From an uncultured Thermoleophilia bacterium (lineage in GTDB: Bacteria > Actinomycetota > Thermoleophilia > UBA2241), in NCBI GenBank assembly GCA_963696935.1, contig CAVOMB010000056.1, forward strand, positions 3,331 through 67,330: a stretch of 64,000 nucleotides of DNA, read 5' to 3'. A program made the translations under genes and the position numbers. The notes beneath the pieces are model-generated. The model was not told the DNA's origin and made no database searches. It was given only the letters and a program-made list of their open reading frames with translations. Below, piece by piece: positions 3,804-58,507 of the stretch (the stretch's first letter is position 1; every line of letters begins with the position of its first letter).

Positions 3804-3848
3804 GTCCGACGGGCAGCCCACGGAGCGGCCACTGAGGATGGGGGTGGG

Positions 3849-3893
<45 letters not shown>

Positions 3894-4139
3894 TTCGCCT
3901 CTGCGCGCGCCGCACGCTGCCGATGGGTGCCATTCGAGCCTGAGCTGAGAAAGCACGACCTGAACTCATCTCGCGGCATCGGGCTGGGACCGGTCGCTGC
4001 CGCTGCCGTGCGTTCGCCCTCCACACCCCGGCCGGCGGGCACCCCGGGCGCTCAGCTGCGTCGTCAGGCTCTCGGCAAGCAGGTCGCGTGCAGGTCCTTC
4101 TGGCGTCGGGCAGGCCGCGTGACTTCCAGCTGCTTGCGC

Positions 4140-4376
4140 CTAGCGCCTCGGTCGCCGGCCCCCTGGTCGCAACGGCAGATGGTCACCGCTCCTGTAGCTG
4201 ATGACGAGGGCGACCGTTGCGCCAAGCAGCGAAAGGAAGAGCGTGAGAAGGAACCCGAGGGCGAAGCCGCCGCCGATCGACCTGCCTTTGCGACGAGAGA
4301 TGGTCATGCACCAGAAGCCGACGCAGACAGGAAGCACAACGCAGGAGAGCCAAAGCACGAGTTCTTCGCGTCCCAT
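4140..4376 (-). CDS. Small membrane protein (78 aa, two predicted TM helices)
   Basis: Two hydrophobic stretches (LVLWLSCVVLPVCVGFWCM and GFALGFLLTLFLSLLGATVALVI). GC3 is lower than in the flanking core genes. The RBS is weak. Confidence 0.4.
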   Translation of the reverse strand: MGREELVLWLSCVVLPVCVGFWCMTISRRKGRSIGGGFALGFLLTLFLSLLGATVALVISYRSGDHLPLRPGGRRPRR

Positions 4377-4595
4377 GGTGAACGCGCCTCAGGTCGCGCT
4401 TCGCGGCGATGCTCCCCTGGGAAAGACACGGCCCTCTGCCAGTCCTTCGCCAAGGCGAGTGACCCGCGGAGCTTGACGCGGCGTCAACGAACAGCCCTGG
4501 CAGGAACAACTTGGAACGTCGCCGCTCTTCCTCTGCCCATGCAGTTGGAGATGTCCGTGCAGCGGTGGACCTCACCCTCTCCAGGTCGCGACCGG

Positions 4596-6386
4596 TCAAT
4601 TGCACGCCTCATCTTCGACTGGCTCCCCGAGAGGGGGATGGGCTTGCCCCGGTATGCCGCGTCCGTGAACCACGTGTGCTTCCTCATGCACGAACTTGCC
4701 GCCGCGCATCCACGAGGCGAACGCCGCGATCAGGCACATCGCCGCCGCGAAGACGAGCACGTAGACGATGCCGTCCTTGAACGGATGGGCGATGAGTGAG
4801 GGGAAGAACTCCTTACCCACGAGCGTGTGCACGTTGATCGTGGGCAGCGCGCCCAAGACGTGCGCGCCGAGGAGTTCCCTCAGCGGGTTGAAGCCGAGAA
4901 AGGCGGCAAACAGGTAGCCCGTGGGCGGCATGTGCGAGAGCTGCGTAGCGACCTGCGCCGGCACGTGTTGGCCGGTGAGGCCGGCAAACATGGCTGCCGG
5001 AACGTGAGTCGTGAGGCCGACCACCATGAGCGAGAAGAAGATGCCGATGGAGAGCGGCATGCCGAGCGTCTGGGCGGTGGCGCGCATGCCCGAGGCGACG
5101 CCGCGGTTACGCGCCGGCACGCTGTTCATGATGGCCGCCGTGTTGGGGGCGGCGAACATGCCGAAGGCGATGCCGTTGAGGAAGAGTATGCAGCCGAAGG
5201 TCCAGTAGGCGAAGTCCGCGGGCAGGGTCATGAGCAGCAGGAAGCTGAGCGCCGCCAGCAGCATGCCGGTGGTGGCGAAGGGGCGGGCCCCGTAGCGGTC
5301 GGAGAGGATACCAGACACGGGCCCGGCGACGAGGAAGCCCAGGGTCATGGGAAGCATGTAGATGCCGGCCCAGAGCGGCGTCTGCTCGAAGCTGTAGCCG
5401 TGCAACGGCAGCCAGATGCCCTGGAGCCACATGATGAGCATGAACTGCAAGCCGCCGTTGGCGATCGAAGAGAGCAGCACGGCGAGGTTGCCGGCAGCGA
5501 AGGCGCGGATGCGGAAAAGTCCGAGGTCGAACATCGGCTCGTCGACGTGGCGCTCGATCACGACGAAGGCGATGAGAAGCGCGACGCCGCCTCCGATCAT
5601 GGCCACGACAAAGGGGTTCGACCAGCCCATGTCGGAGGCGCCGTGAGGCCTGATGCCGTAGGTGATGCCGGTGAGCAGGACGGCGAGGCCGGCGGCGAAG
5701 GTGAGGTTGCCGAGCCAGTCGATGCGGGCCCGGTGACGCTCACCGACCTCGCGCAGCTGCCAGAAGGACCAGAGGACGCCGAGGATGCCAAGCGGCACGT
5801 TGACGAGGAACACGAGCCGCCAGTCGACGGCGGCAAGCACGCCGCCCAGGATGAGGCCGATGAACGATCCCGCGAGCACAGAGACGCCGTTGATGCCGAG
5901 CGCCATGCCGCGCTGATCGGCGGGGAAGACGTCGGTGAGGATGGCCGCCGAGTTGGCCATCATCAGGGCGCCGCCCGCCGCCTGGACCATGCGAAAGGCG
6001 ATGATCTCGATGGCGCCGGTCGAGCCGGTGCTCCACACCAGCGTGAGGCCGAGGGCGGCTGCCGTGAAGACGACGAAGCCGATCTTGAATATACGCACGC
6101 GGCCGAACATGTCGCCGATGCGGCCCGCGGTGACGACGAGCGCGGCCGAGACCAGGCCGTAGCCCATGAGGATCCAGAGCAGGTAGGTGAAGTTGCCGGC
6201 GTCGAGCGGGCTCAGATGGATGCCGCGAAAGATGTCGGGCAGGGCGATCAGGAGGCTCGAGGCGTTGATCATGGCCATGAGCACGCCGAGAGTCGTGCAG
6301 GAGAGTGCAACCCACTTGTAGGGGATGCGGTGGCCCGTGGGCGCTCCCGGCTCGAGTGCGAGCCCCGCTGGTTCAGATGGTGTCAT
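4596..6386 (-). CDS. MFS transporter, DHA2 (EmrB/QacA-like, 14-TM) drug:H+ antiporter type
   Basis: 596 aa and highly hydrophobic. MFS motifs include GRIGDMFGRVRIF. The start overlaps the marR stop (ATGA). Confidence 0.85.
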   Translation of the reverse strand: MTPSEPAGLALEPGAPTGHRIPYKWVALSCTTLGVLMAMINASSLLIALPDIFRGIHLSPLDAGNFTYLLWILMGYGLVSAALVVTAGRIGDMFGRVRIFKIGFVVFTAAALGLTLVWSTGSTGAIEIIAFRMVQAAGGALMMANSAAILTDVFPADQRGMALGINGVSVLAGSFIGLILGGVLAAVDWRLVFLVNVPLGILGVLWSFWQLREVGERHRARIDWLGNLTFAAGLAVLLTGITYGIRPHGASDMGWSNPFVVAMIGGGVALLIAFVVIERHVDEPMFDLGLFRIRAFAAGNLAVLLSSIANGGLQFMLIMWLQGIWLPLHGYSFEQTPLWAGIYMLPMTLGFLVAGPVSGILSDRYGARPFATTGMLLAALSFLLLMTLPADFAYWTFGCILFLNGIAFGMFAAPNTAAIMNSVPARNRGVASGMRATAQTLGMPLSIGIFFSLMVVGLTTHVPAAMFAGLTGQHVPAQVATQLSHMPPTGYLFAAFLGFNPLRELLGAHVLGALPTINVHTLVGKEFFPSLIAHPFKDGIVYVLVFAAAMCLIAAFASWMRGGKFVHEEAHVVHGRGIPGQAHPPLGEPVEDEACN

Positions 6387-6868
6387 GTTTGTGGGCTCCT
6401 CACTGCTGCAGCATCGTCGGTGGCATGGATCTTGTCGGGGCTCAGCGCCCCGGCGAGCGCCCCCAGCCCCTTCGCAAGGGCGTCGAGAGCGTCGTCGCTC
6501 AAGTGGCCGAGCCCTTCCTTCAGGCTCTGATCACTCCCGTGGCGAAGCTCGCCCAGGAGCTTCGCGCCCCGCGGCGTGGCCGCCAGAAGCACACGCCGAC
6601 GGTCGCTCGCATCGGCTCCGCGCTCTACATAGCCGCGACGCACGAGCTGGTCGACGAGCAGGCTGGTCGCCGACTCGCCGATGCGTAGCTCGCGGCCGAG
6701 CCTGCAGACTGGGATGCCCGCGTTCTGCTCTACGGCGATGAGAGCCTTGAACTGCGCCATCGTCAGATCGAGTTGCAGCCACACGGGGACGCTCAGCCGA
6801 TGCAGGCCGGCGTAGACGGTCCGCAGGTCAGCGGTGATGGTCTGGGCGCGCGGGTCGTGACGGTTCAT
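6383..6868 (-). CDS. MarR-family transcriptional regulator
   Basis: 161 aa. Winged helix LTMAQFKALIAVEQNAGIPVCRLGRELRIGESATSLLVDQLVRRGYVERGADASDRRRVLL. Translationally coupled to the MFS gene. Confidence 0.85.
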   Translation of the reverse strand: MNRHDPRAQTITADLRTVYAGLHRLSVPVWLQLDLTMAQFKALIAVEQNAGIPVCRLGRELRIGESATSLLVDQLVRRGYVERGADASDRRRVLLAATPRGAKLLGELRHGSDQSLKEGLGHLSDDALDALAKGLGALAGALSPDKIHATDDAAAVRSPQT

Positions 6869-6942
6869 CTTTGCCTCGCGGGGTCAAGGAGGGCCGAAGG
6901 CGCAGAGGCCTCAGGCCGAACGCGGCAGGAAGGACAACGTCG

Positions 6943-6982
6943 AGTGTAGCAAAAGCCCATCTCGAAAGCCAATCAAATTGGC
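6943..6982 (-). promoter_or_regulatory. Candidate marR-MFS promoter with an overlapping palindromic operator
   Basis: On the minus strand: TTGGCT, 18 nt, TACACT (-10 at 6948-6943). The inverted repeat GCCAAT-nnn-ATTGGC at 6968-6982 overlaps the -35. It lies about 75 nt upstream of the marR ATG. Confidence 0.35.
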
Positions 6983-7358
6983 GACGCCAAAGTATCTAGC
7001 GTGATGTTGCGCAAGAGCTCCGTGACCATGTGTGCTCGCGGCTCTCATTCCGTCGGCGACGTCTGACGCGCCTAGTACGCAAACGCACTCAGGACACTAG
7101 GTGCCGCGATCGCCGAGCCTCTCTGAACCCTGCGGCTCGGCTCGCAGGGCGCCCTCGGCAGTGCACTGGTCGCCGGTCACCGTGGAGCGCGGGGGCTGGC
7201 GGGAACGTTCCTTGCACCCCATCCCGTACCTTGATGCGCGTCGATTGGCTCGTCGCTGCCAGTCAAGACCACTTGCGGCTCGCGCATCCCTTGAAGTAGG
7301 CGCGAACTCGGCGAGGCTGCGCGCGAACGAGGCGAACGAGGCTCCCCCGCGCGGGGCC

Positions 7359-8300
7359 TCAGGACGACTGGGCGACCAACTGCGGCGGCCGCTGCTCCAG
7401 GAGGTCGCGGGGCCAGCCCCCGCGCTCGGCCACGGCTTCATAGGTGCTGCGCAGGAACGTCAGCAGTGCCTCGCGTGGGTCCTCCGCCGTGCGCACCGCG
7501 TCGTAGGGCAGCATGAAGCCGCCCGGCATGCCGGGGGCCTGCACCCACTGCGCGGCTGCCGGCTGCACGCTGGCCGTCTCCAGGCCGCTCGGCGGGGGGA
7601 ATGCCATGACGAAGAAGGACGCCGCAGGTGCTGCCTCACTGCCGAAGCTAAGCGTCGAGCTCACGCCCTCCGCGTCGAGATTTCCGGACATGATCTTGGA
7701 CAAGCCCTCGGGCGCCTGGGCTGGCCGGCCCGAATGCCGCGTCGTGCCGAAGTCGCCGCCGCCCCAGTAGTAGCTCGGCGGCGTGTGCTTGCCCCAGTAG
7801 CCGCTGGCGTACTGCTCGTACACCGAGCCGACGCGGATCATCGCCTGCCAGAGCAGGTTCGCCTGCTCGGGGTCGTAGAGGTGGTGTGTCGCGTCCTCGT
7901 GGAACGGAATCGGCTCGGCGACCTCCTGCGGCAGCGGATTGATGGCGGCCGGGACCTCGAGCTCGGTGAGGGCGGCGAGCACCTCGCGGTAGAACTCCGC
8001 CACGGACGCACCGAGCTTCACGGCCACGCTCCGCCCGTCGCTGCGCTCGAAGCGCGCCTCGTGGCGGATCAGGTCGAGGTCGACGGCCATGGTGCCGTCA
8101 CCCGCCCACAGGGGAGTGGTCGTAAACCCGTCCTGTGAGAGGCGCAGCGGCGCGTGGCCCCACTGCGCCAGAGGCGGGGTGAGGGCGAGCCGGATCTTCC
8201 CGACGATCTGCGAGTACATGTGGAGCGTCTCGCGCGTGTCCTTGTAGGCCTCGTAGCGGAGCTCGGGCCACGTATCCGTCTTGCTAGTCATTTCGGTCAC
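7359..8300 (-). CDS. Conserved hypothetical protein (DUF5996-like)
   Basis: 313 aa. The N-terminus WPELRYEAYKDTRETLHMYSQIVGKIRLALTPP matches my recollection of the DUF5996 family. Function unknown. Confidence 0.5.
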   Translation of the reverse strand: MTEMTSKTDTWPELRYEAYKDTRETLHMYSQIVGKIRLALTPPLAQWGHAPLRLSQDGFTTTPLWAGDGTMAVDLDLIRHEARFERSDGRSVAVKLGASVAEFYREVLAALTELEVPAAINPLPQEVAEPIPFHEDATHHLYDPEQANLLWQAMIRVGSVYEQYASGYWGKHTPPSYYWGGGDFGTTRHSGRPAQAPEGLSKIMSGNLDAEGVSSTLSFGSEAAPAASFFVMAFPPPSGLETASVQPAAAQWVQAPGMPGGFMLPYDAVRTAEDPREALLTFLRSTYEAVAERGGWPRDLLEQRPPQLVAQSS

Positions 8301-8408
8301 CTCAGATGTCGATGCCAGTTTCGAGCCGGCGAGCGGCGTGGATACTACTTGTGGATGCAGTTACCCTCACCTACATGGTCGAAGGCAAAACAAAAAGGGG
8401 CGGATGCG

Positions 8409-8640
8409 ATGGCAAGGGTCACCGAGCGGCGCGAGCCGGGAGCGGCCCCAGCGACCGCCGCGTCGTGTACGCGGGGCTCACTTCCGACGGCCAGCGGATG
8501 CTCGAAGAAGCCGCCCCGCTGCTGTGCACCGGGCACATCGAGCACCTCGGTGCGCGAGAGGCCGACGTCGTGACCGCCGTGACCGTCGCCATGCGCAAGG
8601 TCCTCGAGGCCGAGGGCGTCGCGCCCTCATCTTCGGGGCC
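8409..8640 (+). pseudogene. MarR-family remnant (C-terminal half only, frameshifted)
   Basis: ARVTERREPG in one frame continues as SGPSDRRVVYAGLTSDGQRMLEEAAPLL in another. This is the wing/dimerisation part of a MarR protein. The N-terminal HTH is absent. Confidence 0.3.
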
Positions 8641-8745
8641 GACCATGAAGACTCGACTCGACCCCGCATCCGGACTCGCCGCCGCCGGCTCTGCGACCGG
8701 ATGGGCGCCTGACAGTGCCGCTGCTCCCCTCCCGAAGGAGGCAAG

Positions 8746-9243
8746 ATGCCACAAGTATCCCTGAACCAGATCGCTCCGGAGTTCAGCCTGCACGACTTCT
8801 CGGGCGCCCCGGTCAGCCTGTCGGACTACCGGGGCCGCAAGAACGTCCTACTGGTGTTCAACCGCGGCTTTACCTGACCGTTCTGCCGCCGGCATATGGC
8901 GCAGTTGCGCCATGACTACTCCGAGTTCGTGGCCCGCGACACGGAAGTCGTGGTGGTCGGCCCCGAGGATGCGTCGGCCTTTGCCACCTATTGGCAGAAG
9001 GAGTCCCTGCCGTTCGTCGGTCTGCCCGATGCCAAGCACACCGTGCTCAAGCTCTACGGGCAGGAGGTGAAGCTGTTCAGATTCGGACGGATGCCGGCCC
9101 AGGTGCTCATCGACAAGGCCGGCGTCGCGCGCTTCGTCCACTACGGGCACAGCATGAGCGACATCCCCGAGAACGAAGAGGTCCTGGCCCTGGTCGACGA
9201 GATCAACGCCTCAGCGGACCCGCCTGGGCCAGGGCGCGGCTGA
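8746..9243 (+). CDS. AhpC/TSA (peroxiredoxin/redoxin-like) protein with an in-frame TGA at the CxxC position; candidate selenoprotein (UxxC)
   Basis: RBS GAAGGAGG lies 5 nt before ATG 8746. A single in-frame TGA occupies 8875-8877 (codon 44) in ...NVLLVFNRGFT-TGA-PFCRRH..., which matches the redoxin motif F.RG.WCPFC. The frame continues uninterrupted into the listed ORF 8896-9243. A hairpin lies 18 nt after the TGA. Confidence 0.6.
8896..8913 (+). promoter_or_regulatory. SECIS-like hairpin downstream of the in-frame TGA
   Basis: AUGGCGC-AGUU-GCGCCAU: a 7-bp GC-rich stem with a GU-containing apical loop about 27 nt from the UGA, within the spacing described for bacterial SECIS elements. Confidence 0.4.
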
Positions 9244-9299
9244 CCGGCGATGTGCAGTCGGTCTGACCACTCTGACCACTGTCGCAGGGGCGGCCTCGA

Positions 9300-10108
9300 T
9301 CATTGTCTGCATCTCCTTCGCCGGCGCTGCCTATGCCGCGCCTGCCGCGTCATCGTCGATCTGCAGCGGGTGAGCTTCATCGAGGCTGCCGAGGAATAGC
9401 CCTGCGCTATCAGCCTGCCCGGCGGTGACTGCCCTCGATGGCGCCACTTCTGTCCCTCCTCCTTGCGCAGCGCCTGGCGCACGTGGATCCGTGAGCGCAC
9501 AAGGTCGACGTCGGTGACGCGCAGACCGAGCAGCTCGCCGCGGCGCAGTCCGGTGGCGGGGTCGAGCGCGACCGGTACAAAGCGCCCCCTCGCTGCGACC
9601 CTTGTGGTTGCCCTTCGGTCACCGTCTCCCGGCGCAGCCGCCGAGAGCAGCGCCGCCTGCTCGCTCGGCGCGTAGACGTGGAAGGGCGGCGGCTCCTCAT
9701 CGGGCAGCTCGACGTAGGTGAGGGGGTTCTCGGCGATCAGCCGCCAGGCGACCGCCAGGTTCATGGCGGCGCCGACGAAGATGAGGTGCTTGCGGACGGT
9801 GCTCGACGAGAGTTCGCCACTCTCCAGCTGCTTCTTCTTCCAGCTGGCGGCGACCTTGGGCGTGAAGCGCGCGAGAGTGACTGAAGCAAGGTCGCAGCGC
9901 ATGTGCTTGAGGTGGCCCGCGTCGCGGGCCCGCGTCGCCGGCGCCAGCTTGTCGCGGCCGTCCAGGTAGCGCTGGCAAGAAGTCGGGGACCGACTCGCCG
10001 GAGGGCTTCACGTGGCGGCCTTCGTAGCCGTCGTTCTGCAGCTTGGCGTCGAGCCGCTTGGCCTCTTCCTCGCTGACTATCGTGCGGCGGGGGCGGGAGA
10101 GAAAGTCC
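9300..10108 (-). pseudogene. Tyrosine recombinase/integrase remnant (frameshifted, catalytic C-terminus lost)
   Basis: ...TIVSEEEAKRLDAKLQNDGYEGRHVKPSGESVPDFL shifts frame near 9975 to ...QRYLDGRDKLAPATRARDAGHLKHM...TPKVAASWKKKQLESGELSSSTVRKHLIFVGAAMNLAVAW...GLRRGELLGLRVTDVDL. No HxxR or catalytic Tyr region follows, and there is no N-terminal Met. Confidence 0.7.
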
Positions 10109-10119
10109 CTGCAAATGAG

Positions 10120-10196
<77 letters not shown>

Positions 10197-15301: not shown

Positions 15302-16480
15302 CTACTGCGGCTGCACCTCGCGCCATGTGTTCTTGATACGCCGCACCATCGACGGGAAGCGCTGGTCCAGGTTCGCGATGCAGTTGTCGTTGTAGAGGAT
15401 GTTAGGCGTTCCCTTCATGTCCTCGTTGGTGTTGGTCACCACCATTCCGTGGATGTCGCCGGTACCGTGTGACGTGTCCATCGGGCCCTCGGAGTAGATC
15501 ACACCCCAGAACTGGGCCGTGCCGCCCCAGCTCAGCGTGCTGCCTCCGAGAATCAGGAAGATGCCCGGCTGCGCCTCGGTGTTGAGGTTCGTGTTGCCCT
15601 GGATCTTGATTTCGGTCGGCGTCGGCGGGTCGATCACACACAGTCCGCTGCAGCCGCCCGTCGGCGCCCAGATGGGGTCTCTCGGGCTTGCCTCAGCGGC
15701 GCCCAGCGAGGTGAAGTACCGGCCATTCGACTGCGCGGTTGAGACAAGCGAGTCGACCAGCGCCTGCGGGAAGACGTCTTCGAGTGGGCTGATGTTGCTC
15801 CCGGTGATCTGTGCGATGCCGGACTGCGTGACGCTGGACGTCTCGATGGTGCCGCCCACCTGCACCGACGTCGTGGTCCCCGTCGGCGGTGCCACTTCGA
15901 TGCGGATCTTGGGGTTGTTGCCTTGGCCGTTGCTGGTCAGGTTGCCGCCGGCCCAGAGAGGGATACCTCGCGGAAGCGACATCGTCATGTACGACCGCTC
16001 GACCTCACTGACCACCCGCGTCTTGCGCTTGCCGACACCCGCCTGCGCGACCATCCACATGATCCCGTCGGGCTGGTTGGGATTGGTAGGGCCGCCCTTG
16101 TCGTAGTGGACCAAGGTGTCAATCGGGTCCAGGTTGTCATACCACTCCACGGTGATGAACTGGCCACTGGTGGGGTTCGGGTACTCGCTGGCGCTGAAAC
16201 GGTTGCGGAATGCGGTGGCGTTGAACGTCGGGACGGCGGCGGACGATGTCGGCCAACTGCTGCCCAGCAAGGCCATCCCGGCATCCAGCCCCGCCTCGGT
16301 CACCGTGAACGACTTGACGTGCTGATGTGTGTCGCTGGTCCCGCCTTGGACGTTGGCCGTGAGAGCCACCAGCGCCGCGGCGGAGATCGCGAGCGCCGCG
16401 ACCACTCCGATGATCAGCACGAGGCCGGCGCCACGCTCACGCTCGCGTGTGTCGCTCCCCATGAGACGTGCCCACCCCAT
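15302..16480 (-). CDS. PilX-N-domain pseudopilin-like protein (cassette A, 392 aa)
   Basis: RBS GAGGTGA. N-terminus ...RERERGAGLVLIIGVVAALAISAAALVAL (PilX_N type hydrophobic helix). The C-terminus ends ...NTWREVQPQ, like its paralogs. Confidence 0.7.
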   Translation of the reverse strand: MGWARLMGSDTRERERGAGLVLIIGVVAALAISAAALVALTANVQGGTSDTHQHVKSFTVTEAGLDAGMALLGSSWPTSSAAVPTFNATAFRNRFSASEYPNPTSGQFITVEWYDNLDPIDTLVHYDKGGPTNPNQPDGIMWMVAQAGVGKRKTRVVSEVERSYMTMSLPRGIPLWAGGNLTSNGQGNNPKIRIEVAPPTGTTTSVQVGGTIETSSVTQSGIAQITGSNISPLEDVFPQALVDSLVSTAQSNGRYFTSLGAAEASPRDPIWAPTGGCSGLCVIDPPTPTEIKIQGNTNLNTEAQPGIFLILGGSTLSWGGTAQFWGVIYSEGPMDTSHGTGDIHGMVVTNTNEDMKGTPNILYNDNCIANLDQRFPSMVRRIKNTWREVQPQ

Positions 16481-16484
16481 AACA

Positions 16485-17216
16485 TCACCTCGTGTTCCGC
16501 AGCTGCGCGGTGGTGCGCAGATGAGTGTAGGTGGGCGACTTGCCCGGGTTCAGGTCGACCAGCAGGTTGAGCTCGACGGCGCGGATCTGAGCGCGGTCGT
16601 CCGTGCCGCGTACGTCGCTCTCGTGCGCCAGAGTGCCGTCGCTGTTGTAGTAGATGTACGTGAAGACCGGAGTCGGGTTGGTGCTGCTGGGTGTCGTCAG
16701 GTTGATGACGTTGGACGCCAGCAGTTGCCCGCCCTCGCCGTTTGTCTGCTCGGACAGGTCAAAGCCCGACTCGGCAGTCTCATCGACACCGGAGATGGAA
16801 TTGCCGGTGCCGAGGTCCTGGAAACGCCAGAGCTGCCCGTTGGAATACAGGCGGTACATGACGAGGCGCGGAGTCACGTTGGCGAACTGGTTCCCGGTCT
16901 TGTTGAAGGTGGTGTACAGCTCGATGTAGAACGGTCGCGCGCGGACAATGCCGACCTCACTGATCGTGGCCGGGGGCTGCTCGACATCGCGGGTCTCCCG
17001 CTCCATTCGCGCCAGAGCCAGCCGCACGGTGTCGACCGTCTCATCACGCTTGGCCGTGGTCGCATACGAGCGCGAGAGAGCGAACCAGCTTAGCAAGATC
17101 ATCCCCGTCAGGAGCACGCTGATGCTCGCCGCCACGACGAGCTCGACCATCGTCATGCCGCCCTGGTCTCTCGCCTGCCTGGTCAGGGCCTCGTACGCCC
17201 TCCATCTGCAGTTCAT
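16485..17216 (-). CDS. Prepilin-type N-terminal methylation-domain protein, PilW-like (cassette A)
   Basis: Leader ...ARDQGG|MTMVELVVAASISVLL. Paralogous to 21050-21742 and 25758-26546 (shared motifs ...VFTY.Y...G...IR.V.L.L.VD.N...P....L.T....RN). The start could be ATG 17216 or the ATG at 17258. Confidence 0.7.
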   Translation of the reverse strand: MNCRWRAYEALTRQARDQGGMTMVELVVAASISVLLTGMILLSWFALSRSYATTAKRDETVDTVRLALARMERETRDVEQPPATISEVGIVRARPFYIELYTTFNKTGNQFANVTPRLVMYRLYSNGQLWRFQDLGTGNSISGVDETAESGFDLSEQTNGEGGQLLASNVINLTTPSSTNPTPVFTYIYYNSDGTLAHESDVRGTDDRAQIRAVELNLLVDLNPGKSPTYTHLRTTAQLRNTR

Positions 17217-17235
17217 CGCCGCACCACCAAGCCGA

Positions 17236-18972
17236 TCATGGATAGGTCGCGGTCCCATTACCGCTGCCGGTGTCGACGACCTCGGTCTTCAGTTGGTTCG
17301 CATGGCTGAAGGTCGTCGACTTCATGAAGAACACGTTGTACTGACCGGCGGGGAGGCTGGACCAGGTGATGCTGTTGCCGTTCTTCTTGACCCAGGTTCC
17401 CGAGGGCGGGGTGGTCGAGGCGGTGCCGGTCGTGGTGTACCACTTGGACGTGGCGACGTTCTGCACCCAAACGTAGGCCTGGGTCGTGCTGTTGTTCGTG
17501 ACTTTGATCTGGCGCAAGACGAGCGGGCCTGTCGTGACGGGGCCCGCACTGGCATAGGCCGAGGAGTTACCGGCCACGTCGACCGCGCAGACCCTGTAAG
17601 TATAGGTGGTCGCCCAGTTCGCCGTAGTGTCATCGTAGACGACGCCTTGATACAGGACCTGCAACTGCTGCCATGTGGAGTTGCCGCTCTGCTGGCGCTC
17701 GAGTGTGTATCCCGCGAGCCCGCTTGTAGGGGTGCCGGAGTCCGTGGACGTCGCCCATGTCAGATGCACGACCGCCTGTCCAGAGACGGGACTTGCCGTG
17801 AGCGGCGACGGGACGCTTGGCGGGTCCTTGTCTGAGGCCGGGTTGGGAAGCGCGGTCACCGCGGCAGTGAATGGGCCGACGAGATTGTTCGTATCGACCG
17901 TGCGCACCTTGTAGTAGTAGGTCGTCCCGTTCGTGACGCTGTTGTCCGGGTACGAGGTCGTCGTCGCCGCCTCGCCGATCTTCGCGTAGCTGACACCGTT
18001 CGTCGAGCGATACACCTCGTACTTCAGCACGCTGCCGGAGGCGGCCGTGGTCCACGTGAGGACCACCTGGCCGTCGTAGCTGTTTGCCACGAGGTCGGTC
18101 GGCGCGGGCGGCGCCAGGTTCTGGTAGTACATGGCGATGCTCCACGGCATGCCCTGACTGCGTGAGCCGAAGCCGGCAACAGCGACCGCCTGGATGATGT
18201 ACGTCCCGTTGGGCGCGTTCGAGTCATCCCACGAGTACTGATAGTGACCGGTATCTGTGGTGCTGACCGGCAGGTCGACCTTCTGCGAGGCGACCGCCGT
18301 TCCGTTGGCGGGCGTGATGGTGAAGAGCACGTATCCACGGTCCGTCGCCGTCGCACTCTGGTTCATGCTGGCGATGTCCTCGGGTGCGAGGTAGGCATCG
18401 ATGACAAGCGGCCCGCTGACGATCTTCGTAGTGTTCGTCGCGGCATCCGTCTGCAGCACACCGTCCGGGCCGAGGTCCACCCGAAGGATCTGCGGTCCGG
18501 CATACTGCTTGGAGATCATCGTACTGAGCTCGACCGGCTTCACCGGCTTTGGGGGAGCCGTCCATCGCGCCGTCACCGTGACTTGCTTGTACTTCTCCGT
18601 GCCGGGAGTGGCGCCGGCGTTGCCGGCGGAGTCGATGTAGTCGACACGGTAGGAGACGACGAACGTGCGATTCCCACCCCCGCCAGTCGTCCAGCCGACA
18701 GTGGTGCCGAACTGGCCGTTGGGGATCGTGTTGTTCGTGAGGGCGGTCTGTTCGATCTGGTCGTAGTCCAGCCCGCGGATCTTCTCGAGCTTGTCCTGCG
18801 CCAGTTGCAGTGCCGCATTTCGCACGACATCGCCCGAGGAGGCCTCGGATGCGCTCACGAACACTGGCACCAGCGCCGTGAACGCAAGTCCTGCGATAAT
18901 AATAGTGACCAGCAACTCCACGAAGCTGAAGCCAGCTCCGCGGTCACAGGCCCGCCAGAAGTGCCTGTTCAT
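17236..18972 (-). CDS. Prepilin-type protein, PilV-like N-domain fused to two fibronectin-III-like repeats (cassette A, 578 aa)
   Basis: ATG 18972 follows GGAGG. Leader MNRHFWRACDRGAG|FSFVELLVTIIIAGLAF. The module AQDKLEKIRGLDYDQI is PilV-like. FN3-like segments are PPAPTDLVANSYDGQVVLTWT...YEVYRS...YYYKVRTVD and PPSVPSPLTASPVSGQAVVHLTW...YTLERQ...YTYRVCAVD. Confidence 0.75.
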   Translation of the reverse strand: MNRHFWRACDRGAGFSFVELLVTIIIAGLAFTALVPVFVSASEASSGDVVRNAALQLAQDKLEKIRGLDYDQIEQTALTNNTIPNGQFGTTVGWTTGGGGNRTFVVSYRVDYIDSAGNAGATPGTEKYKQVTVTARWTAPPKPVKPVELSTMISKQYAGPQILRVDLGPDGVLQTDAATNTTKIVSGPLVIDAYLAPEDIASMNQSATATDRGYVLFTITPANGTAVASQKVDLPVSTTDTGHYQYSWDDSNAPNGTYIIQAVAVAGFGSRSQGMPWSIAMYYQNLAPPAPTDLVANSYDGQVVLTWTTAASGSVLKYEVYRSTNGVSYAKIGEAATTTSYPDNSVTNGTTYYYKVRTVDTNNLVGPFTAAVTALPNPASDKDPPSVPSPLTASPVSGQAVVHLTWATSTDSGTPTSGLAGYTLERQQSGNSTWQQLQVLYQGVVYDDTTANWATTYTYRVCAVDVAGNSSAYASAGPVTTGPLVLRQIKVTNNSTTQAYVWVQNVATSKWYTTTGTASTTPPSGTWVKKNGNSITWSSLPAGQYNVFFMKSTTFSHANQLKTEVVDTGSGNGTATYP

Positions 18973-19254
18973 ATGCCCCTGCCTCCGGATAGACGGGGAG
19001 TTCTCTATTCGCTCTATCGGCGGGGAGGGAAAAAGCATGAGCCCTCTCCGGCTCATCCGTTGCCCCACCGGGCGCATGTCCTAGTAGGTTCGCCCGCCTC
19101 GCTTGTCCACCTTCGCCGCGGTCCTTTGCCAGTATCCCCGGGAAGGTGTACAGACGACCATTGTGACACTACTTCCCGGGCGACGAAAGGTGCGACGCGC
19201 TGGTTCGCCCCCCGGAACGACTACGTCGCCGGCGGAGACAACGCGGAAAGAAGA

Positions 19255-19343
19255 GACGGGGCGCCGGGCGGCTCTGGCGACCACCCGGCGCCCCTGGGAT
19301 CCTCACAGTCGCCTGTTCCGGAGGCAGAGAGAGGTGTGAGGAC
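19255..19343 (-). repeat. Conserved ~90-nt post-PilX element, copy 1 (two hairpins, the distal one terminator-like)
   Basis: Near-identical to 23302-23392. The hairpin GGGGCGCCGGG(15 nt)CCCGGCGCCCC at 19258-19294 is followed on the minus strand by UCUCUUCUUUCC. A second hairpin, CCTCACA...TGTGAGG, spans 19301-19341. Confidence 0.7.
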
Positions 19344-19376
19344 CGTGCTCAGCAGGGTTGCGCCCCGTGTCGGACC

Positions 19377-21038
19377 TCAGTTGACGTTGGGCGAAAGCTC
19401 CTGCCAGGTGCCGGGCACCATGTTCGTCGCCGTTGTGGCCGCGGTGATCTGCAGGTTGGCTAGCGCCCGGGGATCGTACCCGACGTTGCCGTTGTTGGTG
19501 AAGCGGACGTCGCCCTTGGACATGACGGCACCGCGGACGAAGAACGTGCCGTCGCCGTCGTTGTCCAGGTTCACGCCGCCGTCCATGTTGACCACCAGCC
19601 CGGTGAACACGGCATCGGCGCTCAGTTGGATGGCTCGCGTGGCCGAGGTCCCGTCGTCGATGCCCAGCAGCACCATCGGGTCGTTCACGGTGCCGAACCC
19701 GCCGCTGCCCGATGTGGTGATCTGCCCGGGTGAGACGAGGATCGGGCAGAGGATCTGCGCGTTATTACCCGAGAAGGTAACCGCTCCCTGGACATACGTC
19801 GGCCCGAAGACGTGACTGAACGGGCCGCCCGACGACGTGAAGCTCCCGCCCACGTACAGAGGGCCCGGATCCTTGGACGCGTCGGTGTAGTCGGTCGTCT
19901 TGACCGTCAGAGCGCCGCCCCAATTGACGGTCCCTCCGACGTAGATCGGCCCGAACTGGCTGGTGCCCGAAGGTCCGGAGATGGTGAAGTTGCCACCCAC
20001 ATACAGGGCGGTGGCGTTGGTGTGGGTATTACCGCCCAGCGTGAGATTGCCGGTCACGTACAGCGACCGGAAGTTGAACGTGCTCTCGCCGCCGCCCAGC
20101 GTGAGGTTGCCGTTGACGACCAGGTCGGTGCTCGCGTTGTACGTTTGCGGGCTGGTCTTCTGCAGTTGGGTGATCAGCGCTGCGTCCGCCACGGTCCCCG
20201 CCGCGTTCGCCTTGGTCGGCGTCCCCTGTTTGGCCTGCGCGGTCATGGTGTCGATGGTGGCCTGAGGAAGAACGGTGCTCAGCGGCGGTACGCCGCCGGT
20301 CCCGGCCACTGCGGGGTTGATGCCGACTTTCGGATTGTAGACCGTACCGTTGGTCTTGACCTGGAGCGTGGTGGGACCACCGCTCGGCGAGAGATCCGTG
20401 TTCCAGTTGCCGGCGAAGTTGCCACCGGCGTAGATGGCCGCGTTCTTGTCTGTGTCAGCCACCCACGACGTGCTATTGGGGTCCGGGTACTTGATGCCGA
20501 AGGCGTCGCCGCCGCCGCCCGTGAACGCGACGTTACCGTCGCTGTAGATAGCGGCGGCGGGCAGGCTCAGAGAGCCGGTCGAGTTCACCTGGCCGACCAG
20601 CGTCCTAATCCGCGCGGTCTTGCCGTTGTAGGTGGCCGCGGCCTCGACCCACAGCTTGCCGTCGGGCGTGCTGGGCGCGGTCGGTCCGCCCTTGTCCCAG
20701 GTGATCGCCTCGTTCACCGTCGCCTGGTTGTCGTACACCTTGACCGTGAGAGGCGGTCGACTGCCCGACGGGTACGTGGCGTCGTAGGCCGAATTCAGGG
20801 TGCTCTGGGCGAACGCGGCGTTGGCTGCCGGCCAGGTCGTGGTGCGCACGGCCATCACTGCGCTGTCAAGACCGGCCTCGGCGTAGTTGAAGGCTTCGTC
20901 ATGATGCCGCTCGGCCGCCGTCGCCCCCTGCTGGTTGGCGAGCACGAACACTGCCGTGCCCGCGAGGATGGCAAGCGTGGCGGTGATGCCGAGCAGCAGG
21001 ATCAGCGCCGCTCCCGACTCAGAGGTGTGTCTCGGCAT
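19377..21038 (-). CDS. PilX-N-domain pseudopilin-like protein with a Gly/Thr/Asn-rich beta-solenoid-like repeat region (cassette B, 553 aa)
   Basis: ATG 21038 follows GAGGAGGAG. N-terminus MPRHTSESGAALILLLGITATLAILAG. Repeats such as LYVTGNLTLGGNTHTNATALYVGGNFTISGPSGTSQFGPIYVGGTVNWGG. Ends ...GTWQELSPNVN. Confidence 0.7.
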   Translation of the reverse strand: MPRHTSESGAALILLLGITATLAILAGTAVFVLANQQGATAAERHHDEAFNYAEAGLDSAVMAVRTTTWPAANAAFAQSTLNSAYDATYPSGSRPPLTVKVYDNQATVNEAITWDKGGPTAPSTPDGKLWVEAAATYNGKTARIRTLVGQVNSTGSLSLPAAAIYSDGNVAFTGGGGDAFGIKYPDPNSTSWVADTDKNAAIYAGGNFAGNWNTDLSPSGGPTTLQVKTNGTVYNPKVGINPAVAGTGGVPPLSTVLPQATIDTMTAQAKQGTPTKANAAGTVADAALITQLQKTSPQTYNASTDLVVNGNLTLGGGESTFNFRSLYVTGNLTLGGNTHTNATALYVGGNFTISGPSGTSQFGPIYVGGTVNWGGALTVKTTDYTDASKDPGPLYVGGSFTSSGGPFSHVFGPTYVQGAVTFSGNNAQILCPILVSPGQITTSGSGGFGTVNDPMVLLGIDDGTSATRAIQLSADAVFTGLVVNMDGGVNLDNDGDGTFFVRGAVMSKGDVRFTNNGNVGYDPRALANLQITAATTATNMVPGTWQELSPNVN

Positions 21039-21049
21039 GGTGCTCCTCC

Positions 21050-21742
21050 TCAATGCTGGGGGGCGTTGCGCGGCCGCACCGTAGTCTGGAGGCCCGCGTA
21101 GCTCGGCGTATGAGACAGGTTCGCGTCCACGATCAGGTGGATCTGGACGGAGATGATCTTGGAGAGCTCGGCGGTGGCCATGCTCGTGGCCGTCGTGAAG
21201 TTGCCCGAGCCGTCGCGGTAGCCGTAGGTGAACACGGGCGTCGGCGACTCCGTGCTTGGGACGCTGGTGTTCACCACGTTGCGGGCGAGGACCATCTTGC
21301 GGTCGGCGCTGTCGAAGCCTCCGCTCGCGTTGGTGTCGCGCTGCCAGTACAGCGTCTTCTGGACAGCGGCGCCGCTCGTGTCCAGGTAGATGCGCGTGAG
21401 ACGGAGCGCGCCGGTCCCGCTCCCGTCCGACCGTTGGAGCGGGTCGTTGAATGCAGAGCGATAGTCAATCTCGGTGGACGTGGCCACCGTGAACGGCGAG
21501 CTCGCCGGAGTGGTGATCGCCGCAGGCTGGGCGTCGCGGATCTCGCGGGCGGCGCGGGAGATCGCGTCCCTCGCCTCGCCGTTCGCATTGTCGGTCCGCA
21601 CGCCGTTGGCGTAGGACCGCTGGAGCGAAGTCCACCCCATGATCAGCATCGTGGTCACTACGCCCAGGATGATCATGGAGACGAGTAGTTCGATCAGGCT
21701 GATGCCGCGCTGACGACGGCGCGTGTCTGTGAGGCGGCGCAT
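21050..21742 (-). CDS. Prepilin-type methylation-domain protein, PilW-like (cassette B, 230 aa)
   Basis: MRRLTDTRRRQRG|ISLIELLVSMIILGVV. ATG 21742 overlaps the upstream stop by 1 nt. Confidence 0.75.
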   Translation of the reverse strand: MRRLTDTRRRQRGISLIELLVSMIILGVVTTMLIMGWTSLQRSYANGVRTDNANGEARDAISRAAREIRDAQPAAITTPASSPFTVATSTEIDYRSAFNDPLQRSDGSGTGALRLTRIYLDTSGAAVQKTLYWQRDTNASGGFDSADRKMVLARNVVNTSVPSTESPTPVFTYGYRDGSGNFTTATSMATAELSKIISVQIHLIVDANLSHTPSYAGLQTTVRPRNAPQH

Positions 21743-22644
21743 CACAGGGTGAACGTGTAGCTCTGGTTGCTGGTCGTGACGTACACGGTCTGCGTGAGCG
21801 TCTTCTGGTTCCCCGTGTTGCCGTTCTTGTAGTAGTTGCAGGTGACCAAATACGTGCCGGGGGCCAGACCGCTCCAGACAGAGGGCACAGACGTGGTCGG
21901 CACCAGCATCGACGGCGTCGCGGGCGCGTTCGGAGTGACGTCGATGCGCACCACGGTCACGCCCGACGACGAGTTCACGTAGTTGTTCGTAACCAGGATG
22001 GTGAGACTGTAGGTGGACGCCGACGTGGGACTCGGCGAAGGCGAGGGGCTGGCGCTCGGAGACGGTGACGGAGAGGCGGAGGAGCTCGCGCTCGTGCCTT
22101 GCGGGTTCATGACGATCGTCGTCAGGCTCACAGGCCGCACCGGCGACGGCGGAGCGGTCCACGACACCGTCACACTCACCCGCTTGTAGTTGACGGCTCC
22201 GGTGCTGGGCACGTTCTCGACCGAGTAGACGACCGAGTACGGCTTGGCCGAGCCCGCCGGCGTGAAGGTGCTGCCGAACTGCCCGCCGGCGAACGTGCCC
22301 GACTGCAGGTGCGACGCGTCGTTGACGATCTGGTCGAAGGCGAGCAGGCGGATCTTCTCGATGCGGTCCTGGGCGATGTTGTTCGCGACATTGCGCGCCC
22401 TGTCCCCCGAAGACGCCTTCTGGGCGCTTACGAACACCGGGACGAGCGCGGCGAAGACGATGCCGGCGAGGACGATGGTAACGAGGAGCTCCACGAGGCT
22501 GAAGCCCGCCGAAGATGAGCGAAGCGACTCGGAACGCAGGTGCGCCGGGTGCACCGCAAGAGCGCGCGGCGCGCGACGATGGGTGAATGTACCGGCGCGC
22601 TCTCCCGCGGGCGACGCGCCGCCTCTCTCTGCCAGGCTGTTCAC
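21742..22644 (-). CDS. Prepilin-type methylation-domain protein, PilV-like (cassette B, 300 aa)
   Basis: GTG 22644 follows GGGGAG. ...SSSAG|FSLVELLVTIVLAGIVF. AQDRIEKIRLLAFDQI. An SPSPSPSASPSPSPSP linker is followed by a beta-rich C-domain. The leader is unusually long, so the start is uncertain. Confidence 0.7.
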   Translation of the reverse strand: MNSLAERGGASPAGERAGTFTHRRAPRALAVHPAHLRSESLRSSSAGFSLVELLVTIVLAGIVFAALVPVFVSAQKASSGDRARNVANNIAQDRIEKIRLLAFDQIVNDASHLQSGTFAGGQFGSTFTPAGSAKPYSVVYSVENVPSTGAVNYKRVSVTVSWTAPPSPVRPVSLTTIVMNPQGTSASSSASPSPSPSASPSPSPSPTSASTYSLTILVTNNYVNSSSGVTVVRIDVTPNAPATPSMLVPTTSVPSVWSGLAPGTYLVTCNYYKNGNTGNQKTLTQTVYVTTSNQSYTFTL

Positions 22645-22935
22645 ATGGTCTCCCCAATTGCTTCAGGGGGAGCTCTGTGCGCGGGGTGCCAGCCCCGCAC
22701 TGCTCCACATAGAATGCTATCGGCAAGGAGAGGCGCGTCCATGAGGCCTGTCGAACCTCAGACTCGCCACTGGTTCACACGAGCCGCGCCTGCCCCGCCG
22801 GGCTTTGCCCTCCCATCTTCTCCTTGGGGGTCGGCTCTCCTACCATCACCGGACTCAGGCGATTCGAAGCTGGAACATCCGTTTGGGCGCTCTGGGGGAG
22901 AAGTTCGGAAGAGCGCCGATCGGCGTGTTCGCGCG

Positions 22936-23259
22936 TCAGGGCAGCACGTGGACCAGGTGCCCCGCGACCACCAGGAGGACGAGGTTGAGTGCCAGCAGGG
23001 CGATGATAGCCACGACCAAGGCCCTTTTGACCCCCGCCCTGCGCTCAACATCCGGCGAGCCCGTCGCGCTGCTCGCCGCCCTCGAACCCACCCACGCACG
23101 CGTGCCCTCGTCCGCCCAGACGAGGTGGCCCTGCCGGTCGTACTCCATGACGTCCGCGGCGGTCACCGCCCCATGGCCTTCGAGAATGAACGCGCCGTCC
23201 GCCCAGGTGATCCGCGTTCCCTGCCAAGCCGTTGTGGGTCCGAATGTCGCTATCAGCAT
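22936..23259 (-). CDS. Hypothetical protein with a C-terminal TM anchor (107 aa)
   Basis: High GC3. C-terminal helix ALVVAIIALLALNLVLLVVAG. No recognisable motif. Confidence 0.4.
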   Translation of the reverse strand: MLIATFGPTTAWQGTRITWADGAFILEGHGAVTAADVMEYDRQGHLVWADEGTRAWVGSRAASSATGSPDVERRAGVKRALVVAIIALLALNLVLLVVAGHLVHVLP

Positions 23260-23301
23260 GGGTCGTGTCGGGTGGGATGTCGGGTGGGCGGCGAGAGAGT
23301 G

Positions 23302-23392
23302 GACGGGGCGCCGGGCGGCTCTGGCGACCGCCCCGGCGCCCCTGGATCCTCACAAGTTGCCTGTTCCGGAGGCAGAGAGAGGGATGTGAGGA
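23302..23392 (-). repeat. Conserved ~90-nt post-PilX element, copy 2
   Basis: gacggggcgccgggcggctctggcgacc...cctgttccggaggcagagagag..tgtgagga aligns with 19255-19343 with only a few substitutions or indels. It starts 31 nt after the stop at 23423. Confidence 0.7.
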
Positions 23393-23422
23393 TCGTCTCC
23401 TGCGGACTCTACCCGCATCTTC

Positions 23423-25747: not shown

Positions 25748-25757
25748 GACCTTCCTC

Positions 25758-26546
25758 CTAGCTGCCACTCGCGTTGCGAAGGAGCACGGTGGTCGTCGTG
25801 TCGATGTACTTGGGTGCGTGGTAGATGTTGGCGTCGATGATGACCCGTGCACGGACACCTACGATGGTGCTCAGCGTGATCGCGCCCTCTGTGTCATTGT
25901 CGCCCCACTGAAGTGGGCTGGTCGCGGCGGTGCGCCAGGCGTACCGGAACAACTGGTACGCGAGTTTCTCAGGGCCACTGGGAGTGTCGTCGTAGTAGGA
26001 CCTGCTGACGACGTTGCGCGCCAGGACGACCTGCTTGTCGCCGCTGTCGGTGAACCCCGCCGGACCGGCTGCTGAGCTGGACGCGTTGCCGTTCATGTCG
26101 CGCTGCAGGTAGAGCGTCTTCTGCGGCGAGGTCCCCGTCGTGTAGTCGAGGTAGATGCGCGTGAGGTGCACCGCGCCGATGCCGGTGCCGTCGGTCGTGA
26201 TGTTGGTCGAGCCCAAAGACGAGTAGAACTTGATCTCCCACGGGCCGGCGAAGGTGATCGGCGGCTGCCCCACGGGCATCGCGGTCGTCGTGGCGGTCGG
26301 TGTGGGCGTGGGCGGCAGGACGTTGGGCTGGGCGGCACGCAACTCGGTACCGATGCGCGCCGACGCGTCGCGTGCCACGGAGGTGGCTCTGTCCGCCTGC
26401 ATGGCGAACACCGCGCTGCGCTGCAGGTTGACCCACACCATGACCAGCATGGTGGTGATGATGCCGAGGATGATCATCGAGATGAGCACCTCGATGAGCG
26501 TCAGGCCGGCCTCGCGGCCTCCACGGGAGTGAGGTGGGATCCGCAT
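25758..26546 (-). CDS. Prepilin-type methylation-domain protein, PilW-like (cassette C, 262 aa)
   Basis: MRIPPHSRGGREAG|LTLIEVLISMIILGII. The C-terminus parallels the other PilW-like paralogs. Confidence 0.75.
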   Translation of the reverse strand: MRIPPHSRGGREAGLTLIEVLISMIILGIITTMLVMVWVNLQRSAVFAMQADRATSVARDASARIGTELRAAQPNVLPPTPTPTATTTAMPVGQPPITFAGPWEIKFYSSLGSTNITTDGTGIGAVHLTRIYLDYTTGTSPQKTLYLQRDMNGNASSSAAGPAGFTDSGDKQVVLARNVVSRSYYDDTPSGPEKLAYQLFRYAWRTAATSPLQWGDNDTEGAITLSTIVGVRARVIIDANIYHAPKYIDTTTTVLLRNASGS

Positions 26547-26556
26547 CGCCGAGGTC

Positions 26557-27373
26557 TCAGTCGCCGCCGGGGTACGTGTCGAACTTGATCTTGCCGCTGC
26601 TCCACAGGCGGAACGGTGGCGCGGCCATGACGTAGGTAGCCTTGCTGCTCTTGCAGAACACCGAGTACGTGTAGTTGGGGCCGCCGACCAGGTTGGAGAA
26701 CTTGACAGTCGGATACGTGGCGTTGGGGATCGCCCCCGGCGGTGAGTCGGGCAGCGGCGACGTGGTGGCGTTGGGGGTCACGTTGGTCTGCACGCGCCGG
26801 AGCGTGACCCCGGGCGACACCACGTACGAGTGGGTGTCGAAGTAGACGGTGAGCGTCAGGTTGGTCGGCTCCCCATCGGTGACCGAGTTGGTCGTGGCCG
26901 ACGGATCGCGGACGATTGGTGTGGGCGGACATGATGAACGCCGTGTCCGCCCTGCCGACCGTCACCTTGACGTACTTCTGCAGCGAAGTGGGCTCGGGCG
27001 TCGGGGTGACGTAGTAGTGCACGTTGTACGCCCCCGACTCACCGACCAAAGTGTAAGTGGGGCCGAACCGCCCGTCCCCGAACGGGTTGGCCGTCGGGCT
27101 TGGCGAGTAGTTGAGATTCTCCTCCGTGATGTCCGTGTAAGGGAGCAGACGGATCTGCTCGATGCGGTCCTGGGCGATGGTGTTGGAGTCCACACGTACC
27201 TCGTCCTCTGAGGTGCGGGAGAGCGCGTTCGCGAAGAACGGGACCATCGCGGTGAATACCACACCGGCGATGATGACCGTGACCAGAAGCTCGATGAGGC
27301 TGAAGCCGCGCGTCGACCCGGTGAGGGATGCCAAACGTTTTGCCGTCAGGAGACGGCTGTGTGGGGAGCGCAT
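26557..27373 (-). pseudogene. PilV-like prepilin (cassette C) interrupted by a 1-nt frameshift near 26915-26920
   Basis: ATG 27373 follows GGAGGT. ...GSTRG|FSLIELLVTVIIAGVVF...AQDRIEQIRLL... stays in frame up to ...FIMSAHT. The paralog-like C-domain (IVRDPSATTNSVTDGEPTNLTLTVYFD...KFDTYPGGD*) continues in another frame, ending at 26557. Confidence 0.65.
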
Positions 27374-34797: not shown

Positions 34798-34800
34798 CGT

Positions 34801-42672: not shown

Positions 42673-42803
42673 GTTTGCTCCTTGCGTTCCGTGAGGACGG
42701 GCGGGCGGCTCTTCCGGCCGCCCGCCCCACCGGCGCACTCTGCCGCGCCGGAGGTCCCCCCGGTCCTACCCCACAGGCTCCGCAGTCAGACCCCGGGGGG
42801 CCC

Positions 42804-57326: not shown

Positions 57327-57441
57327 GGCTCCTCCTGGTCGCCTCCCCGATGCTACCGGGGCTGGGCGACCGGCGTCATCCGGCCGGCGCCGTGTCTCTC
57401 CCGTGACGCCGACACACATGCCGCCTCGGCCGCGTACGCAC

Positions 57442-58506: not shown

Positions 58507-58507
58507 G

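Follow-up and report, generated by a model that had tools for sequence, protein, structure and literature searches.

Peroxiredoxin-like (Prx-like) selenoproteins with a UxxC redox motif (U, selenocysteine, Sec) are an already documented kind of thiol:disulfide oxidoreductase (PMC1088965, PMC2398784, PMC9312934, PMC13188914). The kind was first predicted by Kryukov & Gladyshev (2004), with the protein WP_010940744.1 as the reference member. The family PF00578 with UxxC or UxxU motifs is listed in two of these sources (PMC9312934, PMC13188914), and in the Global Ocean Sampling (GOS) survey the family was named 'Prx-like 1' and comprised 225 Sec members versus 2,740 Cys members (PMC2398784). Here we analyze a candidate gene of this kind at positions 8746-9243 of a 64-kb stretch of DNA, hereafter called the window, from a draft contig of the metagenome-assembled genome (MAG) of an uncultured Thermoleophilia bacterium (CAVOMB010000056.1). 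The window has a G+C content of 68.6%. An earlier note, made from the sequence of the window alone, had proposed that the gene encodes a UxxC selenoprotein of the AhpC/TSA superfamily. The comparative analysis supports this proposal, in that the TGA codon is shared by all related loci, both sides of it are constrained and the core of a downstream hairpin is invariant.

Like the selenoproteins of the Prx-like kind, the predicted product combines an AhpC/TSA domain (PF00578) with a U-x-x-C motif whose first residue is encoded by TGA, and not with the TxxU motif of true Sec-peroxiredoxins. Homologues with Cys in place of Sec complete the Sec/Cys pair, and a stem-loop resembling a selenocysteine insertion sequence (SECIS), with a G in its small loop, is located 3' of the UGA. 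Unlike the mostly Cys-containing 'Prx-like 1' proteins of the GOS survey, the clade examined here consists almost entirely of Sec forms, with six unique Cys forms in the data examined. Based on the domain, the motif, the Sec/Cys pair and the hairpin, we consider it highly probable that the gene is an intact member of the Prx-like kind. With similarly high confidence, we read it as an intact UxxC selenoprotein gene that is decoded at its in-frame UGA. Genes of this kind, although known, are routinely missed or misannotated by annotation pipelines.

Reading frame and conservation of the in-frame TGA

The ribosome-binding site GAAGGAGG precedes ATG 8746 by 4 nt, and the frame that opens there contains one internal stop only, the TGA at codon 44, both as described in the earlier note (Table 1). 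The frame is terminated by another TGA at 9241-9243, and gives a product of 165 amino acids (aa) when the internal TGA is read through. With U read as C, the product matched Pfam AhpC-TSA (PF00578) at residues 7-129, with an E-value of 6.5e-22 and a score of 78.2 bits, as compared to a cut-off of 26. A match to Redoxin had an E-value of 2.2e-18, and the two matches together span residues 7-142. These results agree with the AhpC/TSA-type protein of 165 aa claimed previously, as does the redox motif at the TGA, which was read in frame as VFNRGFT-U-PFC-RRH. The window copy is intact at 77 of the 78 columns that are conserved to at least 95% in the family; the sole deviation, K112R, is conservative and also present in the closest relative, locus L001 (GCA_040961035.1). 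No other plausible gene was recovered when the window was scanned for further TGA codons flanked by coding signal, based on the G+C content at third codon positions; the remaining matches were antisense shadows.

The comparison was based on 82 related loci, which included two initial relatives from unrelated genomic contexts and another 80 from a scan with one genome per species. For the alignment statistics these were reduced to 81 unique sequences. The loci were found in Thermoleophilia, in Anaerolineae and other Chloroflexota and in Coriobacteriia, as well as in a few bins labelled Planctomycetaceae, Eubacteriales and Saccharibacteria. In the DNA of the two initial relatives, the TGA is located at the identical position and is preceded by a conserved segment of 43 codons. 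Across the full set, which covers at least three phyla, the homologous position is occupied by TGA in 82/82 loci, in each case on the column of the redox Cys, where the rare Cys forms have TGY (Y, C or T). Since the TGA is present in all 82 loci and 14 nt of the hairpin are invariant in the 81 unique sequences, the comparative data place both the TGA and the hairpin far beyond what would be expected by chance. They indicate that the in-frame TGA is a selenocysteine codon and not a lesion.

The sequences on both sides of the TGA displayed the characteristics of coding DNA. In 81/81 unique sequences, the 43 codons ahead of the TGA form an open frame, with ATG as the start codon in 80 sequences and GTG in one. 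Entropies at the first, second and third codon positions were 0.69, 0.45 and 1.21 in this segment, a coding-type pattern that matches the values of 0.57, 0.38 and 1.36 for the downstream part. The dN/dS ratios, estimated with the Nei-Gojobori method for the window gene versus seven relatives, ranged from 0.10 to 0.33 in codons 1-43 and from 0.13 to 0.28 in codons 45-150. For the L001 copy, with 94% protein identity, the ratios were 0.18-0.33, calculated from small substitution counts. These values show that purifying selection acts on either side of the TGA. A Shine-Dalgarno (SD)-like tetramer (GGAG, GAGG or AGGA) was found ahead of codon 1 in 78 of 83 copies, as compared to 0/83 copies ahead of the internal ATG at 8896. 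A start at this internal ATG, which the earlier note had considered as the observation that would speak for a truncated protein, was thus not borne out.

A putative bacterial SECIS and the Cys forms of the gene

The hairpin AUGGCGC-AGUU-GCGCCAU, claimed to be of the bacterial SECIS type, is present at 8896-8913, and a U.G pair can lengthen it to 8 bp (Table 1). Its apical loop AGUU (8903-8906), with a G followed by a U, starts 26 nt after the UGA. This corresponds to a gap of 25 nt, as compared to the 16-37 nt between UGA and apical loop that the bSECISearch model allows. The hairpin resembles bacterial SECIS elements of the E. coli fdhF type and the bSECISearch consensus in several respects: it lies a short distance 3' of the UGA within the coding sequence, the stem is GC-rich, and the small apical loop contains G then U. 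It differs from the E. coli fdhF element in its distance to the UGA, in that 17 nt separate the UGA from the foot of the stem, whereas this distance is 11 nt for the minimal element of fdhF. A bulged U was not evident in the hairpin.

The hairpin core ATGGCGCAGTTGCG (14 nt, 8896-8909) is invariant in the 81 unique sequences, synonymous sites included, and identical in Thermoleophilia, Chloroflexota, Coriobacteriia and others. The third-position entropy was 0.15 at codons 51-55, as compared to 1.2-1.4 in the flanks. Codon usage in the hairpin was skewed relative to the rest of the same genes: GCG was used for Ala in 79/79 sequences (25% elsewhere), CAG for Gln in 81/81 (69% elsewhere) and TTG for Leu in 81/81 (13% elsewhere), and the Arg codon was CGC or CGT only. 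At pair 25-36, the C or T of the Arg codon is located opposite a G and forms a G-C or G-U pair, and in locus L036 a double change results in a compensatory A-U pair. The 8-bp structure was paired in 91% of the cells, versus 18-53% when the 3' partners were slid by 1-3 columns. In the RNAalifold consensus, only four pairs were kept. The invariance of the synonymous sites, together with the Cys forms as a control, argues for an RNA element that is supported by conservation rather than covariation. From the invariant core and the codon skew we conclude that the hairpin is likely to represent a bacterial SECIS, consistent with what had been claimed for it.

Cys codons (TGC or TGT) were observed at the position of the Sec codon in loci L084/85/90, L086, L087, L088, L089 and L091, which correspond to six unique Cys forms. 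A search with a TGY-specific pattern in the JGI metagenome collection yielded just three matching stretches. Core changes that are absent from every TGA form were detected in three of the six unique Cys forms, as compared to 0/81 TGA forms (Fisher exact p ~2e-4, with relatedness ignored). These changes are GCG to GCA in L089, CGC to CGA in L087, and ATG to CTG, TTG to TTA and CGC to CGG in L086. In the flanks of one Cys-form homologue (L084 1-992, L085 373-966), we also observed genes for a C_GCAxxG_C_C protein and a DsbA-like protein nearby, and an RVT_1 reverse transcriptase gene directly upstream. Both the C_GCAxxG_C_C and the DsbA-like families are included in published lists of selenoprotein families.

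Active site, proposed decoding and alternative readings

The closest solved structures by sequence were BCP/PrxQ (3drn), AhpE from M. tuberculosis and oxidoreductases of the ResA/TlpA type. The AlphaFold model of P0002, a Cys orthologue with 74% identity, had a predicted local distance difference test (pLDDT) score of 90.1 and a predicted template modeling (pTM) score of 0.88. The template modeling (TM) scores of this model were 0.8-0.87 to BCP/Prx structures and about 0.72-0.74 to ResA. Residue 44 is located directly ahead of helix 45-56 in the model, and Cys47 in the first turn of the helix. The product thus shares with the canonical peroxiredoxins BCP/PrxQ (3drn, 3hjp) and AhpE (1xvw, 4x0x) the fold, Cys47 at the peroxidatic position and the active-site residue R115, which is found in GRMPAQVLID, an Arg followed by a hydrophobic strand, and is invariant in 35 homologues. 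The canonical signature PxxxTxxC, on the other hand, is not kept, and the product was not assigned to the canonical TxxC/TxxU peroxiredoxins; the site is nearer to the CxxC of ResA/TlpA-type proteins, which also match. Because the alignment to AhpE places Cys47 at the peroxidatic Cys, Sec44 at the Thr of TxxC and Arg40 at the Pro, the active site is predicted to be a thioredoxin-like U-x-x-C on a peroxiredoxin scaffold. The best curated NCBI family was NF040769, 'SelL-related redox protein' (2.6e-20), which matched over the N-terminal 100 residues, with the redox motif included. Membership in this family was rejected at 72.8 bits versus a curated cut-off of 120, with a match to profile positions 3-99 of 173 only.

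In the decoding that we propose, translation would start at ATG 8746, and the ribosome would insert selenocysteine at the UGA of codon 44 instead of terminating. The hairpin would recruit SelB-GTP-Sec-tRNA(Sec), and the second TGA, which is not followed by such a hairpin, would terminate translation. In the folded protein, Sec44 is expected to cap the active-site helix at its N-terminus, with Cys47 one turn further in. By analogy with the family, the most likely chemistry is a selenenylsulfide cycle, in which Sec44 would serve as the nucleophile, form a selenenylsulfide with Cys47 and be reduced back by a thioredoxin-type partner. The product would then be a thiol-dependent reductase of disulfides or peroxides. 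The data establish the conservation of the TGA, the coding constraint to either side of it, the RNA-level constraint on the hairpin, the fold and the ends of the island; SelB binding, the insertion of Sec in this host and the catalytic chemistry are the steps that we infer.

A number of observations weigh against this reading. The folding energy of the hairpin was not significant when compared to shuffles of this GC-rich DNA (z about -1.2), and the evidence for the hairpin is therefore drawn from the relatives. Nor was the covariation significant, with one compensatory change and a score no better than shuffles. A search of 8850-8960 at E<=10 gave no matches to Rfam families. The hairpin core was kept in three of the six Cys forms; 'fossil' SECIS elements that are left after Sec-to-Cys conversion have been described (PMC1794560), and the retained hairpins fit a recent conversion of this type but are no proof of it. 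None of selA, selB, selD and tRNA-Sec was detected in the window (ARAGORN and Rfam on the window, and Pfam on ~60 window open reading frames, ORFs), and no tRNA-Sec was found by ARAGORN within +-10 kb of the gene in the 82 relatives. A tblastn search with an E. coli SelD query, which provides a lead only, gave no match in the window and ~1.2 Mb of loci. These negative results cover the window and the flanks of the relatives, and are uninformative on the rest of the genome. In view of the lack of sel genes in the window and in these flanks, we treat Sec decoding in this host as a prediction. In the literature, we found nothing relevant on the use of Sec in Thermoleophilia.

The genomic setting also bears on this question. 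The earlier note had placed the gene in a tRNA-Asp island and suggested a horizontal acquisition, and both are supported by a repeat of the tRNA and by an integrase gene that abuts it. The 3' ~48 nt of the tRNA-Asp, from the anticodon loop to the acceptor end, are repeated at 3845-3902, as part of a 58-nt direct repeat that is 88% identical to 10116-10173. The two copies bound an element of ~6.2 kb (about 3903-10115), in which the G+C content is 0.66-0.70, slightly below the 0.70-0.73 of the downstream flank. The integrase showed weak XerC/XerD-type NCBIfam matches in its N-terminal part only, far below the cut-off, and no Pfam match. In L001, which is about 91-93% identical at the DNA level, the gene order of DUF5996, MarR and Prx is the same as in the window. 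L001 contains a MarR/MarR_2 gene (L001 3926-4789) where the window has a remnant, and ~347 bp of this gene (L001 3956-4303) are missing from the window. The remnant ORF gave no Pfam or NCBIfam match. As a speculation, if the MarR protein was a repressor of the Prx-like gene, as in the OhrR type, the expression may be constitutive here. Some of the island genes, namely the integrase and the adjacent MarR gene, are decayed; the Prx-like gene is not. About 9/82 relatives have a tRNA gene no farther than ~3.5 kb from the Prx-like gene, which is roughly what chance would give, and no general claim is made that the family is island-borne.

The main alternative is that the gene is a selenoprotein gene by descent that is not expressed here, being a passenger in a host without Sec machinery, in which translation would stop at codon 44 and the gene would be heading to decay. 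The acquired island with its decayed integrase, the 347-bp deletion in the MarR gene next to it and the lack of sel genes and tRNA-Sec in the window could be explained in this way. However, the ORF, the ribosome-binding site, the TGA and the SECIS core are all intact, and there is a single conservative change in the 78 conserved columns. The dN/dS ratios in the comparison with L001 also speak against decay, albeit with few substitutions. Furthermore, sel genes are usually unlinked to selenoprotein genes, and their absence from 64 kb therefore says little. We consider a passenger in a non-decoding host improbable, though it is the best of the alternatives, and prefer an intact gene that is decoded as Sec.

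It is considerably less probable that the codon specifies a standard amino acid, Trp, Gly or Cys, through a reassigned code or near-cognate read-through. The closest database proteins (80-94% identity) are all 107-120 aa long, match the query in its C-terminal two thirds only and begin with MAQLR, at the Met right after the TGA. The 'full-length' matches are only 55-74% identical to the product, and most of these, among P0003-P0038 and others, have a W at the Sec position, as would be expected if the codon were read as Trp. Yet P0016 (locus L083, 376-840) has a TGA behind its W, and the stored gene fails to give the stored protein under the bacterial code. Thus, the W at the active site is an artefact of gene calling with genetic code 4 on TGA, with the codon checked in this one case. 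In a few entries, the Sec position is occupied by R (P0012, P0027) or L (P0037); as judged from the protein entries only, the codons would be CGA and TTA, one base from TGA. The real terminator is TGA in 36/82 of these genes, the window gene included, from which it follows that TGA is not reassigned in these organisms. The presence of Cys at this column in the homologues without TGA, a classic Sec/Cys pair, and the conserved hairpin that follows the UGA also argue against a standard amino acid.

Least probable of all is a simple nonsense pseudogene, or a Cys-less protein of 115 aa made from ATG 8896. Gene callers do annotate the short MAQLR products, but the stop is common to 82/82 relatives across phyla and not private to one lineage, and constraint around it is not relaxed, with dN/dS ratios of 0.1-0.33 to either side. 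According to the model, a protein that starts at Met51 would be devoid of the initial beta-strands and of the entire active site. Because the upstream codons are open and constrained, the SD-like sites precede codon 1 and one column in 78 deviates, this explanation is excluded for the family, and we regard it as very improbable in the case of the window copy.

Read as an intact selenoprotein gene, the locus holds a lesson for annotation. Public data sets contain this gene as a truncated 'peroxiredoxin' of 107-120 aa or with a false Trp, and the same applies to dozens of its relatives. The correct reading would add a selenoprotein to Thermoleophilia-like Actinomycetota and to many MAGs of Anaerolineae and Coriobacteriia, and would imply that these lineages use selenium. 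The 81 unique sequences and the six Cys revertants represent a clean natural data set for one class of bacterial SECIS, and the location in an island provides direct evidence that selenoprotein genes move horizontally with their in-gene SECIS. The current understanding of Sec decoding is unchanged; what stands out is that the clade has almost no Cys forms, that its SECIS core is identical across phyla and that the gene is located in an island. It is tempting to speculate that the clade is a selenoprotein cassette that is self-contained, nearly Sec-obligate and mobile between phyla, and that has been caught here in a small tRNA-Asp island, in a host that may also recode UAG, but we hold this broader scenario to be doubtful.

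Feature coordinates and other genes of the window

Table 1. Coordinates of the Prx-like gene, of the island in which it is located and of genes in the MttB cluster.
Feature	Position	Strand	Evidence or context
Shine-Dalgarno sequence GAAGGAGG	8734..8741	+	Direct reading; SD-like tetramer family-wide
Prx-like (AhpC/TSA, UxxC) predicted selenoprotein coding sequence, complete, 165 aa	8746..9243	+	Pfam, frame, dN/dS
Predicted UGA selenocysteine codon 44, first position of U-P-F-C	8875..8877	+	Conservation in 82/82 loci; Cys in rare homologues
Putative bacterial SECIS hairpin	8895..8914	+	Core invariance, codon skew
Direct repeat of tRNA-Asp 3' part, left island end	3845..3902	-	88% to 10116-10173 over 58 nt
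Major facilitator superfamily (MFS) transporter	4596-6386		Within island; Pfam
MarR regulator	6383-6868		Within island; Pfam
DUF5996 gene	7359..8300	-	Pfam PF19459, 1.6e-86; same order in L001
MarR-type regulator remnant, directly upstream of Prx-like gene	8306..8764	+	L001 comparison
Decayed tyrosine recombinase (integrase), abuts tRNA-Asp	9300..10007	-	Truncated frame; weak XerC/XerD-type NCBIfam matches
tRNA-Asp (GTC), integration target, right island end	10120..10196	-	ARAGORN; Rfam tRNA 69.5 bits
RACo-type reductive activase	40885-42738		MttB cluster
MttB-family paralogues without internal stop, among others	44281-45693, 45690-47126, 47149-48615, 48868-50280, 55845-57458, 61000-62379		Pfam
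B12-binding corrinoid protein	53253-53891		MttB cluster
ATP-binding cassette (ABC) transporter	57502-60728		MttB cluster

A second gene with an internal stop codon was found elsewhere in the window. The mttB gene at 51799-53268 (+) contains a single in-frame TAG (52780-52782), which falls between positions 334 and 340 of the Pfam MTTB profile, the canonical position of pyrrolysine. A match to Rfam PYLIS_3 at 52780-52879 starts exactly at this TAG, with a score of 73.9 bits as compared to a gathering score of 38. The TAG is conserved: among the close relatives (65-93% identity, more than 80 clusters), nearly all have been called as proteins of 327 aa that end at the TAG codon; one member of the cluster with 93% identity is labelled Thermoleophilia bacterium. 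Full-length MttB proteins are just about 47-56% identical to the product. ARAGORN and the Pfam search of the window ORFs detected no tRNA-Pyl or pyl genes in the window. On sequence grounds, the gene looks like a pyrrolysine-type trimethylamine methyltransferase gene, and the organism may recode both UGA and UAG.

The mttB gene is located in a dense methyltransferase neighbourhood (40885-62379) with eight MttB-family genes, seven of which have no internal stop. The paralogue at 61000-62379 covers profile positions 26-407 of 500 only, and may be truncated. Beside this cluster, genes at 33967-36111 and 42804-44099 (-) encode a beta-keto acid cleavage enzyme, a class-III aminotransferase and a radical SAM protein similar to lysine-2,3-aminomutase, which are typical of lysine fermentation or beta-lysine metabolism.

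Another region, at 15302-27373 (-), contains a run of large ORFs without Pfam match (15302-16480, 16485-17258, 19377-21053 and 23423-25858), as well as three proteins with a prepilin-type N-terminal methylation motif (21050-22726, 25758-26546 and 26501-27373). The G+C content at first codon positions was unusually low in this run, 0.51-0.58. The region may represent an uncharacterised cluster associated with a pilus or pseudopilus.

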